Shown piece by piece: positions 736 to 63,260 of a stretch of 64,000 nucleotides of DNA. The translations under genes and the position numbers were made by a program. Position 1 is the first letter of the stretch. Every line of letters begins with the position of its first letter. The DNA lies in assembly GCA_963722255.1 (NCBI GenBank), contig CAVRJO010000001.1, forward strand, positions 128,001-192,000. The letters are read 5' to 3'. The notes beneath the pieces are model-generated. The model searched no databases and was not told the DNA's origin. It worked only from the letters and a program-made list of their open reading frames with translations. This DNA comes from Candidatus Babeliales bacterium. GTDB lineage: Bacteria; Babelota; Babeliae; Babelales; JANWKD01.

Positions 736-772
736 AACTGGCCTGTCAGGCATTTCTGAAGGAAATGACTGG
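736..772 (-). repeat. tRNA 3'-trailer hairpin repeat (TGGCCTG family)
   Basis: aactggcctgtcaggcatttc-tgaag-gaaatgactgg; near-identical to the tRNA-Val trailer at 57902-57937. Confidence 0.8.
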
Positions 773-844
773 TGCCGAGGAGTGGAATTGAACCACCGAC
801 ACTGTGCTCTTCAGGCACATGCTCTACCACTGAGCTACCTCGGC
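770..844 (-). tRNA. tRNA-Phe (GAA)
   Basis: Reverse complement GCCGAGGTAGCTCAGTGGTAGAGC..CTGAAGA..GGTTCAATTCC..CTCGGCACCA; cloverleaf with encoded CCA. Confidence 0.97.
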
Positions 845-55634: not shown

Positions 55635-55724
55635 AGCAACCCCAAATAAACAGAAATCATTATTTTTCTAATATTTTTTAATTCATTTAAAGAACTGGCC
55701 CGCCAGGCATTTCAAATATATTAC

Positions 55725-57167
55725 TGTTAGCGCAAAGTGATAAGTTCCTATTATAGCGCAAAGTAAAAAGTTCCGGTTTTTAGGGTAAACTTAATCTTGT
55801 AAACAAAAAGAAAAACTCTAAAAATGCAACGGAACTTATATGGAATATATTACCATGAATCGCAAAGAACGAGAACAGGCAAAAGTGTTTGTTCAGGTTA
55901 AAGAAGGAAAAATGACACAGGCAGAGGCTGCAGCCCGTCTGAGATTTACAGAGCGGTGGGTCAGAGAAAAATATGGAAGATATTGTGAATCTGACGACTT
56001 TGGCCTTGTACATGGCAATAGGGGAAAAGAAAGCCCAAATAGATGGGATCAAGGAGAAGAACGATTGTTAATCTCATTGTTAGAAAGCGATTGGCAAGGC
56101 TTTGGGCCAACCTTTGCGGCTGAAAAACTTAAAGAGTTGCATGGAATAAAGATAAGTCGAGAAGCTGTTAGAAAGGTCATGATTAAGGCAGGAATATGGC
56201 AACCTAAAAAACAGCGCAGCAAGCATCGCAAGCGACGAGAAAGAAGGCGTATGTTTGGCATAATGATTCAGCTTGATGGCTCTCCACATGACTGGTTTGA
56301 AGGGCGTGCTGGGGTATGTACCTTACTTGTTTTTATTGACGATGCTACTGGCCAAATCCTTTGGCTTGAGTTTGCCCCTTCTGAATCGATGCATGCTTTA
56401 ATGACCGCAACTAAAAATTACGTTGAAAAATATGGGATTCCTCAAACTTTTTATACTGACCACGGTTCTGTTTTCCATGTTAATTTGAATAATCAAGAAA
56501 ATATTAAAAAGACCCAATGGGAGCGCGCTTGTAAAGATTTGGGAATTGATGTTATACATGCCAATAGTCCTCAGGCAAAGGGCCGCGTTGAACGTTGCAA
56601 TCAAACCCTTCAAGATCGCCTTATTAAGGAAATGAGACTTGCTGGGATATCATCAATAGATCAAGCAAATAATTATCTGCGAACAAGCAATTATATTGCA
56701 AAGCATAATGCTGCATTTCAAGTTCCTGCTGCCCAAGAAGGCGATGCCCATGCTAGCGCTCAATCATTTGATTTAAACGATATATTTAGCACTCAAGAGA
56801 CTCGTATTCTTACGAATGATTTTACTATTACCTACCAAAAACAGATTTTTCAATTAAGCGATCAGCAAAAAACAATCATTTTTCCAAAAAATACCATTGT
56901 TGTTAAAGTACATTTAAATGGAACCATAAAACTGTGGATTCGAAAAACAGAACTTTCTTTTAGCGAAATCTACCAACCCCCCAAATTCAGGAGAAAAAAA
57001 TATCTGACTGTATACCAAGAAAGCCTTCAAAAAATAGCCAACGTTTGGCAGGCTGGTTGCCCCCTAGTGAGAGTAGGTTGAAGCCGGTCGCGCCGGCCGT
57101 GGAGGCGCTTTAATGTTAGGAACTTTTTACTTTGCTAAATACCGGAACTTTTCACGTTGCGTTGACA
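55725..57167 (+). mobile_element. IS1202-like (ISNCY/IS481-related) element, transposase 55840..57081
   Basis: TGT..ACA ends with repeated sub-terminal boxes; 17-bp direct repeat catttcaaatatattac at 55708-55724 and 57168-57184; QLDGSPHDW, IDDAT, YTDHG, PQAKGRVER. Confidence 0.92.
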
Positions 57168-57180
57168 CATTTCAAATATA

Positions 57181-57423
57181 TTACCATAATCTTCTTTTTG
57201 CAAATGCATACCCAGACCCAGATTTAATATATTTTTCAAACTCTAATGCCTTAGCTTCCTCATCAAATCCAATAGATGATATCAATTTCCATGGCTTATA
57301 ATCGGAAGTATAAACAGAACCACCTTCATTATGCTTTTGTAACCGCTCTCTTACATTGGTAGTAAAACCAACATAGGTTTTATTGGGATCTTTTAACGAT
57401 TTTAATAAATAGACATAGAACAT
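57181..57423 (-). CDS. Small GIY-YIG nuclease (UPF0213/YhbQ-like)
   Basis: YVYLL..TYVGFT..RLQKHN..YT..KPW..FEKYIKSGSG. Confidence 0.92.
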   Translation of the reverse strand: MFYVYLLKSLKDPNKTYVGFTTNVRERLQKHNEGGSVYTSDYKPWKLISSIGFDEEAKALEFEKYIKSGSGYAFAKRRLW

Positions 57424-57454
57424 AAGAAAACAGATTTAAAGTTATAATAAGACT

Positions 57455-57578
57455 GCCCTACTACGCTAAAGCTACGAAGGACATACTTCGCTTTTTAGTC
57501 ACAATAACCATCTTTTTAATAAAATTTTACTTCCTTTAAAAGGATGGCCTGCCATACGAAGCTTTACGCGAAGTATGG
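57455..57578. repeat. Inverted pair of structured repeats between GIY-YIG and tRNA-Asp
   Basis: ctactacgctaaagctacgaagg .. tggcctgccatac-gaagctttacgcgaa-gtatggc. Confidence 0.75.
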
Positions 57579-57653
57579 CGGAGGCTGATGGGACTCGAAC
57601 CCACGACCTTCCGCGTGACAGGCGGACGCTCTAACCAACTGAGCTACAGCTCC
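57576..57653 (-). tRNA. tRNA-Asp (GTC)
   Basis: GGAGCTGTAGCTCAGTTGG..CTGTCAC..GTTCGAGTCCC..CCA; one extra base in the acceptor 3' strand. Confidence 0.93.
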
Positions 57654-57680
57654 AACTAAGATTATTCCACTATGGCGTCA

Positions 57681-57776
57681 GTTCTACTACGCTCTATGAG
57701 CTACGAAGAACAAGCAGAAAACTGGCCTGCCATTCGAAGTTTGCCAAGCCGGAAGGCCTGGATAAACGTAGAATGG
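57681..57776. repeat. Inverted pair of structured repeats behind tRNA-Asn
   Basis: gttctactacgctctatgagctacgaagaac .. actggcctgccattc..gaatgg. Confidence 0.75.
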
Positions 57777-57849
57777 CTCCTCGGGCTGGACTCGAACCAG
57801 CGACCTAACGATTAACAGTCGTTTGCTCTACCAACTGAGCTACCGAGGA
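57774..57849 (-). tRNA. tRNA-Asn (GTT)
   Basis: TCCTCGGTAGCTCAG..CTGTTAA..GGTTCGAGTCC..GAGGAGCCA, 76 nt. Confidence 0.97.
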
Positions 57850-57934
57850 ACAAATTTCAACTATTTCAAAAACTGGCCTACTTTATTATTGATATCGAAG
57901 AATGGCCTGCCAGTCATTTCTGAGGGAAATGTAC

Positions 57935-58010
57935 TGGTGGGCGGTACTGGACTCGAACCAGTGACCCCCAGTTTGTAAGACTGATGCTCTACCAACTGAG
58001 CTAACCGCCC
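57935..58010 (-). tRNA. tRNA-Val (TAC)
   Basis: GGGCGGTTAGCTCAG..CTTACAA..GGTTCGAGTCC..CCGCCCACCA, 76 nt. Confidence 0.97.
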
Positions 58011-58128
58011 ACTATCAAAGTGGACAGAACAAATTCTAAAGAAAAAGATTAAAAAAGTCAAAAAAGAATTCATAAATATTTATAAATCATCACATTTTAT
58101 TATAGACTACTATAAAACCTAACCACGT

Positions 58129-59073
58129 ATGAGACAATCACTAAAGGATTCTATGGCAAAAACCGCTGATTTTTTCAAAAACATCTTCATTCTACTGCTT
58201 GTACTTCAATTTGCTCCAATGCTCTTTGAAAGCATCAAAAAACAGTACAGCCGTTATTTTGAACCACATACTAAAGTCGGGTATCTAGCAATTAAAGGGA
58301 TTCTCCTTAATTCATCATATTATGTTCATCATCTTAAGAAGCTTTTTGAAGACAAAGAAGTTAAAGCTATTCTTGTATATATTGAATCACCCGGTGGCGC
58401 AGCAGGTACAGCGGAAGCAATTGCGCATGAAATCGAACAACTCAAAAAGGAACATCCTAAACCAATTATAACGATAGCGGAAAATATTGTTGCTTCAGGT
58501 GGTTACTATATTGCAGCTGCAACAGATTATATTATTGCATCTCCTTCAACGCTTGTTGGTAGCATTGGCGTCAGCATTCCGGGCCAATTTAAGTTGCATG
58601 ATTTTATTGAGCAGTACAAAATACATTATAACGTCATAAAAGCCGGAGAATATAAAGCAGTTACTGATCCTTTTGCTGAAGTAACACCAGGGCAAAATGC
58701 TCTTTTAACCAATGTTGCTGAAAGCAGTTATGAAAACTTTCTTGAACATGTTTCTTCACATCGTCCTAAATTGGAACTAGAACATGCTGCATCGTGGGCT
58801 GATGGTAAAATTTTCACAGGAAAACAGGCTCTTTCATTAGGCCTCATCGATCTCATTGGATCACAATCAAATGCTCTTCAAAAAATTAAAGAGATGACCA
58901 TTATTGAAGGCACCATTGAATGGATAAAACCTGAAAAGGTTTCCAACTTTTGGACACTGTTATTTGGTTCGCCTGATTACACTGATGGCAGTGATTCATT
59001 CATGACAAGAATGGTTAATTCACTATGCCTCACCCTTGAAGAACGATATGGATCGGTAAAAGGAATTATGTAG
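58129..59073 (+). CDS. sppA: Signal peptide peptidase SppA (S49)
   Basis: IESPGG, ASGGYYIA, GSIGV, GEYK, GKIFTGKQA. Confidence 0.93.
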   Translation: MRQSLKDSMAKTADFFKNIFILLLVLQFAPMLFESIKKQYSRYFEPHTKVGYLAIKGILLNSSYYVHHLKKLFEDKEVKAILVYIESPGGAAGTAEAIAHEIEQLKKEHPKPIITIAENIVASGGYYIAAATDYIIASPSTLVGSIGVSIPGQFKLHDFIEQYKIHYNVIKAGEYKAVTDPFAEVTPGQNALLTNVAESSYENFLEHVSSHRPKLELEHAASWADGKIFTGKQALSLGLIDLIGSQSNALQKIKEMTIIEGTIEWIKPEKVSNFWTLLFGSPDYTDGSDSFMTRMVNSLCLTLEERYGSVKGIM

Positions 59074-61372: not shown

Positions 61373-63260
61373 ATCGGGTAGGAGCGAGTGATTAACTCGC
61401 GTCCTCCCACACCACCGTACGTACCGTTCGGTATACGGCGGTTCATGTCGATACTTTCGCGAGCATCTCATAATATCTTTCAACAAGACTTACAAGCCCT
61501 TGCTCTCGCCAATAAGCGAGGCCGAGGGCTTTGTTTATTTGTGGAGTATTTGCCAGCCGCCAGTATTTCTTGTCTGAGAATGCTATGCGTCCTGCCCATT
61601 TTCCTTCGATTCCTAGGTCTTTTAACTTTGCAAGCTTGGTTTTCCCTAACTTCCATTGTTTCAATAAACACATTCTCAATCTTCTGCGTATCCATTCGTC
61701 AAGTTCCTGGAGCACACTCTTTGTTTCGATAATACCGAAATATCCAATCCATCCAATGAGATACTCATTGAGCTTCTTCAGTCGTTCTTTCATAGATATA
61801 CCCCAATTGCGCTTCGTTAACTCGCGAATCTTCTCCTTAAACTTTATTCTGGTTTTGGGAGCGATTCGCAGCTTTACTTGCCAGCCAAAGGTGAATGAGA
61901 ATCCTAGGAACTTTCTTCTCGATGGATAGTCTATTGCACTCTTTTGTACATTTATATTGAGCTTCAATCGTTCTTGTAGAAACTTCATTATACTTGCATA
62001 CACTCTTTGTCCCGCTCGCTTGCTTGCTACGTAGATGTTGCAGTCATCGGCGTATCGAACAAAAGAGTGTCCTCTTTGTGTAAGTTCTTTATCAAGATCA
62101 TTCAGTATGATATTTGATAGCAGGGGACTTATTGGGCCACCTTGCGGTGTCCCGTCCTCTGATCTCACATGACATCCATTGAGCATTACTCCCGATTGCA
62201 AGTATTTGCGGATAATTGCGTGTATGCGTTTATCTTCGACATGTTGTGCTATTTTCGACATCAGTATGTCGTGATTTACACGGTCAAAGAATTTCTCGAG
62301 ATCGATATCCACCACAATTTTCTTTCCGTGTTGGATATAGGTTTGGGCTTTATGCACAGCTTGCCGTGCACTTTTGCCTGGTCTAAATCCATAACTGAAT
62401 TCTGAAAATGTAGCTTCAAATATTGGTGTCAAGACTTGTTGGATTGCCTGTTGGATAAAGCGATCAAGTACCGTTGGAATTCCTAATTCACGCACTCCAC
62501 CGTCTTGTTTCGGAATTTCGACTCGACGTACGGGAGCTGGTTTATAGGTTCCGTCAAGAAGCTCTTGTTTGATGCGATTCCAATGCTCATTCAGATATGG
62601 AAGCAGTTCATTGACCTGCATATTATCCACACCCGCCGAGCCTTTGTTTCTTTCCACTCGTTTGAGTGCCTTCTTGAGATTATCGTACTCTACCACTTTC
62701 TCCATCAGTTGATTATTATGATTTGCCAAGATATGTTTGTTGATTTGTGTCATAAGTTTGCTCAGTACCTCATCAGGACCTGGTAGAATTCACTACCGCC
62801 TCTCAGTGATGGTTCGATTTTTTTTTTCGATTTTCTACTTTCATTGCATTCTCGATGTACGTATCAATCATATCTTTATCGCTCATGTTCAGGCCTTCCC
62901 GATTTTTTTTTCGGTACTATGCCATCTGCTGACTTCTGTCCCTCAACCTCTATTTTCACAGAGGGTTGCCAACTTAGTCGGCGTGGAAACAGATCTCCCC
63001 GGGTAATTGCGCGCCCTTTCACCTCATCTACCTGCTCTATTTACTCTCGATAGTTTTGGCAACCATGGCTTTTGTCTTACTTGGCAGACTCATCCGCTAT
63101 CGCTAGCCTCGCATAGAGTTCGTATACCTCAGGCCAAGGTTTTGCTGCCGGCTTCCTTCAGATTTCACCTCGCGATGAACACCCTTGCCTTAGGCTAATG
63201 ACTTCGTTGCCTTCGTCATTCCGGACTTTCACCGGTAGGTCGCGCCCATGCCGGGCGCAC
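61373..63260 (-). mobile_element. Group IIC intron
   Basis: 5' GTGCGCCCGGCATGGGCG; domain V GAACCGCCGTATACCGAACGGTACGTACGGTGGTGTG; 3' CCTACCCGAT; inserted right after a terminator hairpin. Confidence 0.95.
61443..62753 (-). CDS. ltrA: Group II intron reverse transcriptase/maturase (no endonuclease domain)
   Basis: RELGIPTVLDR, GTPQGGPISP, RYADD, GWIGYF, WIRRRLR. Confidence 0.96.
   Translation of the reverse strand: MTQINKHILANHNNQLMEKVVEYDNLKKALKRVERNKGSAGVDNMQVNELLPYLNEHWNRIKQELLDGTYKPAPVRRVEIPKQDGGVRELGIPTVLDRFIQQAIQQVLTPIFEATFSEFSYGFRPGKSARQAVHKAQTYIQHGKKIVVDIDLEKFFDRVNHDILMSKIAQHVEDKRIHAIIRKYLQSGVMLNGCHVRSEDGTPQGGPISPLLSNIILNDLDKELTQRGHSFVRYADDCNIYVASKRAGQRVYASIMKFLQERLKLNINVQKSAIDYPSRRKFLGFSFTFGWQVKLRIAPKTRIKFKEKIRELTKRNWGISMKERLKKLNEYLIGWIGYFGIIETKSVLQELDEWIRRRLRMCLLKQWKLGKTKLAKLKDLGIEGKWAGRIAFSDKKYWRLANTPQINKALGLAYWREQGLVSLVERYYEMLAKVST

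Follow-up and report, generated by a model that had tools for sequence, protein, structure and literature searches.

The transfer RNA (tRNA) genes in a 64,000-nucleotide stretch of the genome of a Candidatus Babeliales bacterium (GenBank assembly GCA_963722255.1, contig CAVRJO010000001.1, positions 128,001 to 192,000; hereafter the window) are followed by structured 3' trailers, in which one arm of a hairpin is provided by the CCA end of the tRNA itself. The best explanation of these trailers, which we regard as probable, is that they constitute the non-coding arm of selfish nuclease-plus-hairpin elements, a family anchored at the 3' ends of tRNA and transfer-messenger RNA (tmRNA) genes. Read 5' to 3' in the direction of the tRNA, the element consists of (i) a hairpin, H1, at the CCA, (ii) a tail, which can form a second hairpin, H2, (iii) an A/T-rich spacer, (iv) a complement of the H1 5' arm, (v) an inverted H1-like hairpin, H3, and (vi) a gene encoding a small GIY-YIG nuclease. 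Gene-less forms, comprising either H1 and H2 only or the whole arm from H1 to H3, have spread to about half of the tRNA genes of the source genome.

The window carries four tRNA genes on the minus strand (Phe, Asp, Asn and Val), all of which encode the CCA according to ARAGORN and Rfam (Table 1). H1 directly abuts each of them, the CCA of the tRNA being, on that strand, the first three bases of the hairpin. The closing bases are TGG, or TGA in the Phe copy, and are followed by the tail, composed of C, two to five bases and GCCA; the second CCA introduced in this way lies 7 to 10 nucleotides 3' of the stem and is CCG or CTA instead in two copies. A reading of this second CCA as imitating a tRNA end, in the sense of an RNase P minihelix, was considered and, given this distance and variability, set aside. 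An earlier reading of the window, made from the sequence alone, had claimed that the four tRNAs share a trailer with their own CCA as a hairpin arm, and the minus-strand analysis bears this out: the plus-strand motif TGGCCTG-[C/T]CA that it quoted matches the C-tail-GCCA end of the trailers, its trailer coordinates agree to within one to three bases with our spans in all four copies, and the stems that it listed as differing between copies while still pairing are correct. What it described as a CGAAG internal loop has a 3x3 geometry, with T-N-C opposite T-N-C on the RNA-sense strand, and the second, oppositely oriented hairpin that it noted is present behind both Asp (57453-57491) and Asn (57683-57709). 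Folding placed the CCA in a paired state in three of the four window copies, with z-scores of -2.8, -2.9, -1.9 and -1.1 against shuffled sequences; since single copies beat shuffles only modestly, the case was built on comparison between copies and on covariation.

For the structural comparison we used 187 distinct tRNA and tmRNA 3' ends, of which 65 were kept by the tail pattern alone, a pattern that leaves the three bases after the CCA and the three before the TGG unconstrained. All three free positions were paired in 51 of these 65 ends, compared to none of the 65 when the partner triplet was shifted by three bases, and the paired triplets represented 15 different combinations. Aligning 33 short H1 copies revealed compensatory change in four of the five pairs of the apical helix; covariation in the basal helix of the same alignment is circular, because the rows were chosen by complementarity, and the covariation evidence accordingly consists of the apical helix and the tail-selected test only. 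The tail can be refolded with the 3' arm of H1 to form H2, with at least five of six pairs in 46 of 82 copies versus 7 of 82 in the control, and the resulting loops are mostly CAGG or CACGG. Further downstream, the complement of the last two tRNA bases and the H1 5' arm reaches a mean of 10.0 matches out of 12 (7.0 in the tRNA-body control and 7.3 in shuffles), and 19 of 43 loci attain 11 matches or more, versus none of 43 in the control. Two mutually exclusive pairings are conserved, in which the H1 5' arm pairs either with the H1 3' arm or with this downstream complement; in the long-range state, the H1 3' arm pairs with the CCAxyz copy.

The loops of the two oppositely oriented hairpins are biased in opposite directions. 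Among the 187 ends, H1 has the pyrimidine form of the loop in 73 and the purine form in 1, while in 45 modules H3, the hairpin before the nuclease gene, shows the reverse bias (15 purine versus 3 pyrimidine), which is consistent with strand-specific recognition. The internal loop together with its closing pairs reads C-NNN-G; the cleavage motif of the GIY-YIG nuclease I-TevI is CNNNG (PMC12774661), and the shared form might serve as a lead for the site of cleavage. We also considered the tail as a double-stranded DNA palindrome bound by a dimer, and rejected this because its spacer varies in length from 2 to 6 nucleotides, which suits a hairpin loop better. In the congener (genome G001), plain-type trailers on contig C1 (e.g., 283772, 503046, 622235, and 972631) have interiors that are reverse-complemented between copies while CCA and TGG are kept, from which it follows that the palindromes invert at the DNA level; in the copy at 502798, the loop alone is flipped.

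The confinement of the hairpins to CCA ends became apparent at the scale of the whole source assembly (1.62 Mb, 2 contigs, 34% G+C, 36 tRNA genes). By eye, trailers follow 19 of the 36 tRNA genes, with an atypical one at tRNA-Tyr, leaving 16 to 17 without; a strict script criterion places them at 18 of 38. Several sub-types coexist, namely a plain perfect stem and types in which a 6-bp base carries a 3x3 internal loop (T-N-C opposite T-N-C) topped by a variable apical stem. A genome scan that required a fully paired 6-bp stem enclosing the internal-loop motif, but not CCA, yielded 23 matches. In 15 of them the first bases are CCA and the last TGG; 13 of these 15 stand at tRNA or tmRNA 3' ends and the other two just 5' of other GIY-YIG copies. 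By virtue of these positions, the hairpins are not dispersed in the manner of repetitive extragenic palindromic (REP) sequences but are tied to CCA ends. Both tmRNA-like genes of the genome carry a trailer. These two genes, called by ARAGORN at C1:795232-795599 and C1:797383-797822, lie 2 kb apart, differ in their tag peptides and have long-type trailers, and dense repeats of the CGAAG/CTACG type are present between and behind them.

Beyond the source genome, we searched with a pattern composed of the T-arm, CCA, 12 to 42 nucleotides, TGGC, 2 to 6 nucleotides and GCCA, the same pattern reversed serving as the control. It was present in 45 of 61 genomes of the order and in 201 of 261 genomes of the Dependentiae sample, all of them within that order, and absent from the remaining 60. 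The matches number about 1,250 in total, up to 21 per genome, versus about 10 for the reversed control (zero or one per genome). Trailer copies are alike within a genome and different between genomes. Strict counts miss variants, since 5 of 17 tRNA ends in genome G021 carry trailers that the pattern did not recover, whereas in G005, a genome with short intergenic spacers, none of the 17 ends inspected has a trailer.

The distribution of the nuclease is associated with that of the trailers. Protein matches were found in 42 of the 61 genomes of the order, one to six in each and some with internal stops, and a strong match (best E of at most 1e-15) occurs in 31 of 37 genomes with two or more trailer matches versus 5 of 24 with none or one, a contrast to be read as an association and not as a statistical test, because kin genomes are not independent. 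At eight of the ten best loci, a tRNA with its trailer lies 100 to 200 nucleotides upstream on the same strand; of the other two, one is cut by a contig end and in the other a tRNA 5' fragment is fused to the hairpin. The latter (L020, G045:C1:38594-41833) joins the first 27 nucleotides of a tRNA-Arg to CCA, hairpin and nuclease gene, and a complete tRNA-Arg stands downstream, so that the 5' part of the tRNA is duplicated, unlike in the usual 3'-end layout.

The association extends well beyond Dependentiae, which account for about a third of the loci that we compared, these being the best 80 of 581 nuclease relatives in a species-wide genome collection. The other hosts are Alphaproteobacteria (including three cultured isolates), Verrucomicrobiota, Deltaproteobacteria, Acidobacteriota, Lentisphaerota and Methylomirabilales, and their proteins share 50 to 60% amino-acid identity with the query. 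A tRNA on the same strand, 55 to 407 nucleotides upstream and with the same hairpin layout, is found at 43 of the 80 loci and a complete tmRNA upstream at 13 more, giving 56 of 80 behind a tRNA or tmRNA; among the 37 loci for which no tRNA was called upstream, 35 pass a lenient H1-like test, including the 13 with a tmRNA. Loci of different phyla share a conserved internal loop, tail and inverted partner. The link between repeat and nuclease that had been surmised from one locus thus holds both among the genomes of the order and among distant relatives. The gene-bearing module in many phyla rules out the notion that the trailers are a peculiarity of Dependentiae, although the multiplication of gene-less copies is special to that group, five genomes outside it holding zero to three true trailer matches each. 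Searches of Rfam with 14 loci from several phyla, at E values up to 1, gave no match to the trailer or the arm, and we found no description in the literature linking GIY-YIG genes to tRNA or tmRNA ends.

Comparison with the congener shows how the trailers turn over. The Val-Asn-Asp cluster is conserved between the two genomes; in the congener, tRNA-Asp carries a plain hairpin and no nuclease gene nearby, while in the source genome it is followed by a different hairpin, the arm and the gene, and then by the 3' half of a plain hairpin. The sequence-only reading had recognized this half copy (55693-55713), which comes directly behind the stop codon of the nuclease once the insertion sequence is removed; it is identical to the plain type over the 3' half and aligns with the trailer of the congener's tRNA-Asp. 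The same nesting is seen at Ser(CGA), Met and Leu(GAG) of the source genome, where a gene-less arm from H1 to H3 is followed within 10 to 25 nucleotides by the 3' half of a plain hairpin; the Leu(GAG) of the congener is of the plain type. Among 19 loci assigned by eye between the two genomes, about 4 have the same type, 9 have different types and 6 have a trailer in the congener only, so that the polymorphism in presence for which the sequence-only reading had asked was found, including an empty and a filled tRNA-Asp site, and a polymorphism in type besides. Across phyla, about 10 of 79 loci have an old hairpin, devoid of its first bases, directly after the stop codon. Arms can also stand in tandem on both sides of the nuclease gene, as in a metagenome-assembled genome of Puniceicoccaceae (L121), where a nearly complete second arm (H1 without its first bases, spacer, complement and H3) lies behind the stop codon.

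Table 1. Features of the hairpin-nuclease locus and its surroundings (window positions, except in the last row, where source-genome contigs are named)
Feature	Position	Strand	Basis or remark
tRNA-Val(TAC)	57935..58010	-	ARAGORN; Rfam RF00005, 73.4 bits; CCA encoded
Val trailer: plain perfect-stem H1 from CCA, then tail/H2 ending in second CCA	57903..57937	-	sequence; CCA paired in fold
tRNA-Asn(GTT)	57774..57849	-	ARAGORN, Rfam; CCA encoded
Asn trailer: H1 with 6-bp base (CCA/TGG), 3x3 pyrimidine internal loop and long apical stem, then tail/H2	57723..57776	-	
Inverted H1-like hairpin of H3 type with purine internal loop, behind Asn trailer	57683..57709	-	sequence
tRNA-Asp(GTC), with discriminator and CCA	57576..57653 (ARAGORN span 57580-57653)	-	ARAGORN, Rfam
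Asp trailer: short-type H1 with 3x3 loop from CCA, then tail/H2	57545..57578	-	fold -13.5 kcal/mol, z -2.8
Region 4: 10-nucleotide perfect complement of last two tRNA bases and H1 5' strand	57482..57491	-	11/12 complementary at locus
H3: inverted H1-like hairpin, just 5' of nuclease gene	57453..57481	-	sequence; orientation bias
80-residue single-domain GIY-YIG nuclease gene	57181..57423	-	Pfam PF01541, E 2.8e-15
Insertion sequence, rve-type transposase of 413 amino acids, outside the hairpin-nuclease element	55725..57167	+	just past nuclease stop codon
Remnant: 3' half of older plain-type hairpin and tail, displaced behind nuclease gene	55693..55713	-	92% over 25 nucleotides versus intact tRNA-Asp trailer of congener
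tRNA-Phe(GAA)	770..844	-	ARAGORN, Rfam; CCA encoded
Phe trailer: plain-type H1 closing with TGA, not TGG, and tail	738..772	-	weak fold, z -1.1
Copies of a further repeat family	C2:460800(-), C2:498264(+), C2:460729, 460916, 498338, C1:572184		

Several known systems resemble the element in part. With REP sequences, their mosaic elements (BIMEs) and the associated RAYT transposases it shares short multiplying palindromes, inverted pairs and a small nuclease gene flanked by them. RAYTs are HUH/Y1 enzymes, and REPs are scattered through intergenic regions. The present nuclease, by contrast, is a GIY-YIG enzyme and not of the HUH/Y1 (IS200/IS605-like) kind, and its hairpins are confined to CCA ends; of the RAYT/REP likeness proposed by the sequence-only reading, the nuclease-associated hairpin family stands, and the likeness does not extend to dispersal or to the type of enzyme. 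The closest parallel is with the Ssn nucleases (cd10448; Chenal et al. 2025, Nat Commun, PMC11893778), which are single-domain GIY-YIG proteins whose genes are flanked by hairpin repeats (NTS/SRM) that fill some genomes, and which cut only single-stranded DNA, on one strand only, a few bases 5' of the hairpin (PMC11893778). The likeness lies in a single-domain GIY-YIG protein of about 80 to 95 residues, a gene flanked by hairpin repeats and the multiplication of gene-less repeats, and an Ssn-style cut on the present hairpins would fall at or near the CCA; in size, the 80-residue protein lies within the range of about 80 to 100 residues of single-domain Ssn proteins. The difference is that the present hairpins are restricted to CCA ends, of tRNA and of tmRNA genes, and are not dispersed in hundreds of copies.

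Assignment to Ssn rests on a cd10448 hit or on a tblastn match to Neisseria meningitidis SsnA at E<1e-10. Three cultured hosts possess a relative of the present protein with 55 to 57% identity (Pseudaquidulcibacter saccharophilus, Nitratireductor rhodophyticola and Aquisalinus luteolus), and their entries in Supplementary Data 4 of the Ssn study bear on this point: P. saccharophilus is scored NO in all four ssnA/cd10448 columns, and N. rhodophyticola and A. luteolus are scored NO/NO/YES/NO, a weak indication in which the gene behind the YES is unspecified and, for A. luteolus, the assembly may differ (PMC11893778). Since the SRM pattern fails on our hairpins (see below), the hairpins are confined to CCA ends and the table records no homologue or a weak one in these three species, membership in Ssn is not established. 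The main text of that study contains neither the word 'tRNA' nor 'tmRNA', and its authors likewise draw the comparison with REP sequences and RAYTs (PMC11893778).

Free-standing homing nucleases offer a further comparison. Phage T4 SegB (PMC2330249) is likewise encoded by a GIY-YIG gene among tRNA genes, with filled and empty sites and flanks that are seemingly co-copied, and the tRNA-Asp locus, empty in the congener and filled in the source genome, presents such a pair of alleles. Seg proteins, however, carry a DNA-binding domain, whereas the present protein is a bare catalytic domain, and the structured hairpin arms, the gene-less copies and the cellular hosts of many phyla are particular to the present element. 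Stand-alone GIY-YIG proteins of the Slx1-like/UPF0213 kind share with it the minimal domain, multi-copy genes and an uncharacterized role (Dunin-Horkawicz 2006, PMC1564403; Caulobacter COG2827, PMC1839093), and the passages of these two papers that treat them draw no link to tRNA ends or hairpins. In its probable mode of action, the element thus resembles both Ssn/SRM and free-standing homing nuclease genes, and the tests run do not place it in either group.

By analogy with Ssn, we propose that the nuclease would recognize the hairpin on one DNA strand while this is single-stranded, either at heavily transcribed tRNA genes or during replication, and would cut near the CCA; repair from another copy would then place the hairpin behind the tRNA, either alone or together with the gene. 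The tRNA gene would stay intact, since the hairpin that arrives abuts the CCA. The earlier claim that a repeat family associated with a nuclease spreads at the 3' ends of tRNAs is supported, and the spreading is what the comparisons of sequences between genomes and loci suggest. Several observations weigh against a selfish element of this kind: (i) the cutting and copying steps are borrowed from the behavior of Ssn, and the SRM search pattern fits none of 84 H1 hairpins and finds no site in the source genome, versus one to five in five shuffles; (ii) three genomes, G019, G021 and G038, possess the nuclease gene and have no match to the strict trailer pattern, and in G019 none of the 17 tRNA ends inspected has a trailer; (iii) the genome G014 (99% complete, 2 contigs) has at least 11 trailers, and its sole GIY-YIG match lies in a 430-residue frame of UvrC size, so that trailers persist without the small nuclease, be it as relics or, equally, through a host function; (iv) single non-Watson-Crick pairs in the basal stem are G.U rather than A.C by 7 to 1, an excess that also fits RNA folding, or a single DNA strand; and (v) the downstream junction is variable and can fall anywhere between the end of the CCA and the hairpin loop, in disagreement with precise, transposase-like cut and paste. 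Such a variable breakpoint looks like repair or conversion rather than precise cut and paste. The trailers of G014 also eliminate the nuclease as the enzyme that matures them.

The same features invite an explanation in terms of the host, in which the trailers are an RNA signal whose CCA-pairing hairpin directs 3' cutting or stops transcription, and the GIY-YIG genes are homing hitchhikers. Such a signal would account for a hairpin that starts exactly at the CCA in every copy, for the strand-specific loop (73 versus 1), for the tolerance of G.U above A.C, for the T-rich stretches behind many tails and for the trailers that G014 keeps. RNase Z over the cut-off and an RNB-family enzyme were not found in the source genome, for which reason a stable 3' hairpin would require an endonuclease. 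The genome has RNase E/G and RNase Y, in addition to RNase PH and a PNPase-like protein, with an RNase III match below the cut-off, although this repertoire is descriptive only, the RNase Y matches being in pieces with stops. The absence of RNase Z offers no contrast between genomes with and without trailers, since none of the 61 relatives has a match over the cut-off in either case, and this line was dropped as uninformative. What makes a host signal unlikely in our view, though not negligibly so, is its patchiness and lack of constancy: the 60 genomes of the phylum devoid of matches, the bare tRNA ends of G005, and the 16 to 17 tRNA genes of the source genome itself that do without a trailer; the plain-type interiors, which occur both ways round at the tRNA ends of the congener, and the different hairpin types on orthologous tRNAs of the two congeners. 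Moreover, the few genomes sampled outside Dependentiae have hardly any true trailers, and in the 80 cross-phylum loci the module stands directly upstream of the nuclease gene. The suggestion of the sequence-only reading that the hairpin is a processing signal that sequesters the CCA therefore fails as a general explanation, because trailers are missing from many relatives and the module moves across phyla together with the nuclease gene, and survives only as a possible secondary role.

A different function for the arm follows from its two exclusive and conserved pairing schemes, by which H1, H2, the complement and H3 would constitute a two-state leader RNA that couples expression of the nuclease to read-through or processing of the tRNA, gene-less trailers being relics. 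In agreement with this, the long-range pairing is the minimum-energy fold in two of six copies of the source genome, and the purine-rich 3' arm of H3 lies near the start codon in several loci. The layout of promoter-like sites points the same way: one, with 10 of 12 matches, was called on the minus strand at 58033-58061, just 5' of tRNA-Val, and none on that strand between tRNA-Asp and the start codon of the nuclease, which suggests that the nuclease gene is transcribed by read-through from the tRNA cluster. Nevertheless, H3 is an inverted H1-like copy, as would be expected of a pair of DNA palindromes with no need of an RNA role, and most trailers of the source genome have no gene to regulate; we consider a leader RNA improbable as the primary identity of the arm. 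Ordinary intrinsic terminators, or chance hairpins, can be set aside with near certainty. A terminator scan of 57100-58150 gave two sites, one of which, weak and terminator-like, touches the tail behind tRNA-Asn, and none of which covers H1, the H1 hairpins there lacking the combination of a G+C-rich stem and a direct T run; the trailers are accordingly not ordinary terminators, as the earlier reading had expected. An overlap with the CCA can arise in terminators, as in G019, where the classical terminator of tRNA-Asp builds its stem with the tRNA's own 3' end. Against this stand the excess of matches over the reversed control (about 1,250 versus about 10), the conservation of loop, tail and inverted partner across phyla, and the covariation in the tail-selected ends, which contradicts chance hairpins.

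If the trailers are indeed the arm of a nuclease-plus-hairpin element, a host function may have been acquired secondarily. In this scenario, which we put forward as a tentative and on balance unlikely extension, the Dependentiae host took over the gene-less hairpins, such that the recognition hairpin now serves as the 3' end-forming trailer of about half of its tRNAs and of tmRNA, and the two-state fold (H1, or the long-range helix with H2) couples expression or cutting of the nuclease to transcription of the tRNA. A mobile element would then be writing RNA-processing signals onto essential stable-RNA genes. More generally, the element ties a precise site, the base after the CCA of tRNAs and tmRNAs, to a branch of GIY-YIG proteins related to Ssn in many phyla; it could explain conserved tRNA trailers otherwise taken for processing signals, as well as the partial tRNA 3' ends that accompany nuclease copies and hairpins in these genomes, and it could show one way in which essential stable-RNA genes are colonized unbroken. 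Small single-domain GIY-YIG genes are among the commonest uncharacterized 'hypothetical nuclease' genes in bacteria, and the demonstration that one branch of them, Ssn, is a nuclease specific for single-stranded DNA at hairpins is recent.

The nuclease of the window matches PF01541 with 56.8 bits against a curated cut-off of 22.6; the domain occupies residues 1-68 of 80, with no second domain, and NCBIfam assigns the protein to no family. The catalytic motif residues Y3, Y5, Y17, G19, R27, H31, N32 and E63 are invariant in nine relatives, and the solved structures closest by sequence are SLX1 (E 2.5e-9) and BH0048, a UPF0213 protein (E 6.4e-9). The insertion sequence past its stop codon is flanked by an unusually long direct repeat of 17 bp (55708-55724 and 57168-57184), which overlaps that codon, and has imperfect terminal inverted repeats. 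In the IS1202 group, target duplications typically measure 15 to 17 bp. The congener has a copy of the insertion sequence with 81% identity, in the opposite orientation and at a different place.

With Rfam 15 at the gathering score, matches in the window are limited to the tRNAs and a group II intron, with no trailer family among them; the intron domains lie at 62892-63179 on the minus strand (RF02001, 127 bits; RF01998, 61 bits). Of the words sampled from the locus, no public sequencing run contained more than 18%, and those found came mostly from conserved parts of the tRNAs. Elsewhere in the source genome, a further repeat family (Table 1) shares the apical stem-loop module and the internal-loop motif, has other basal stems and lies away from tRNA genes. 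At C1:63752-74060, the sequence behind tRNA-Arg(CCT) is common to the flanks of tRNA-Glu and tRNA-Arg(TCT), and about 10 kb from tRNA-Arg(CCT) there is an orphan plain-type hairpin with a partial tRNA 3' end, which looks like the far end of an island that integrated into tRNA-Arg(CCT) and displaced its trailer.

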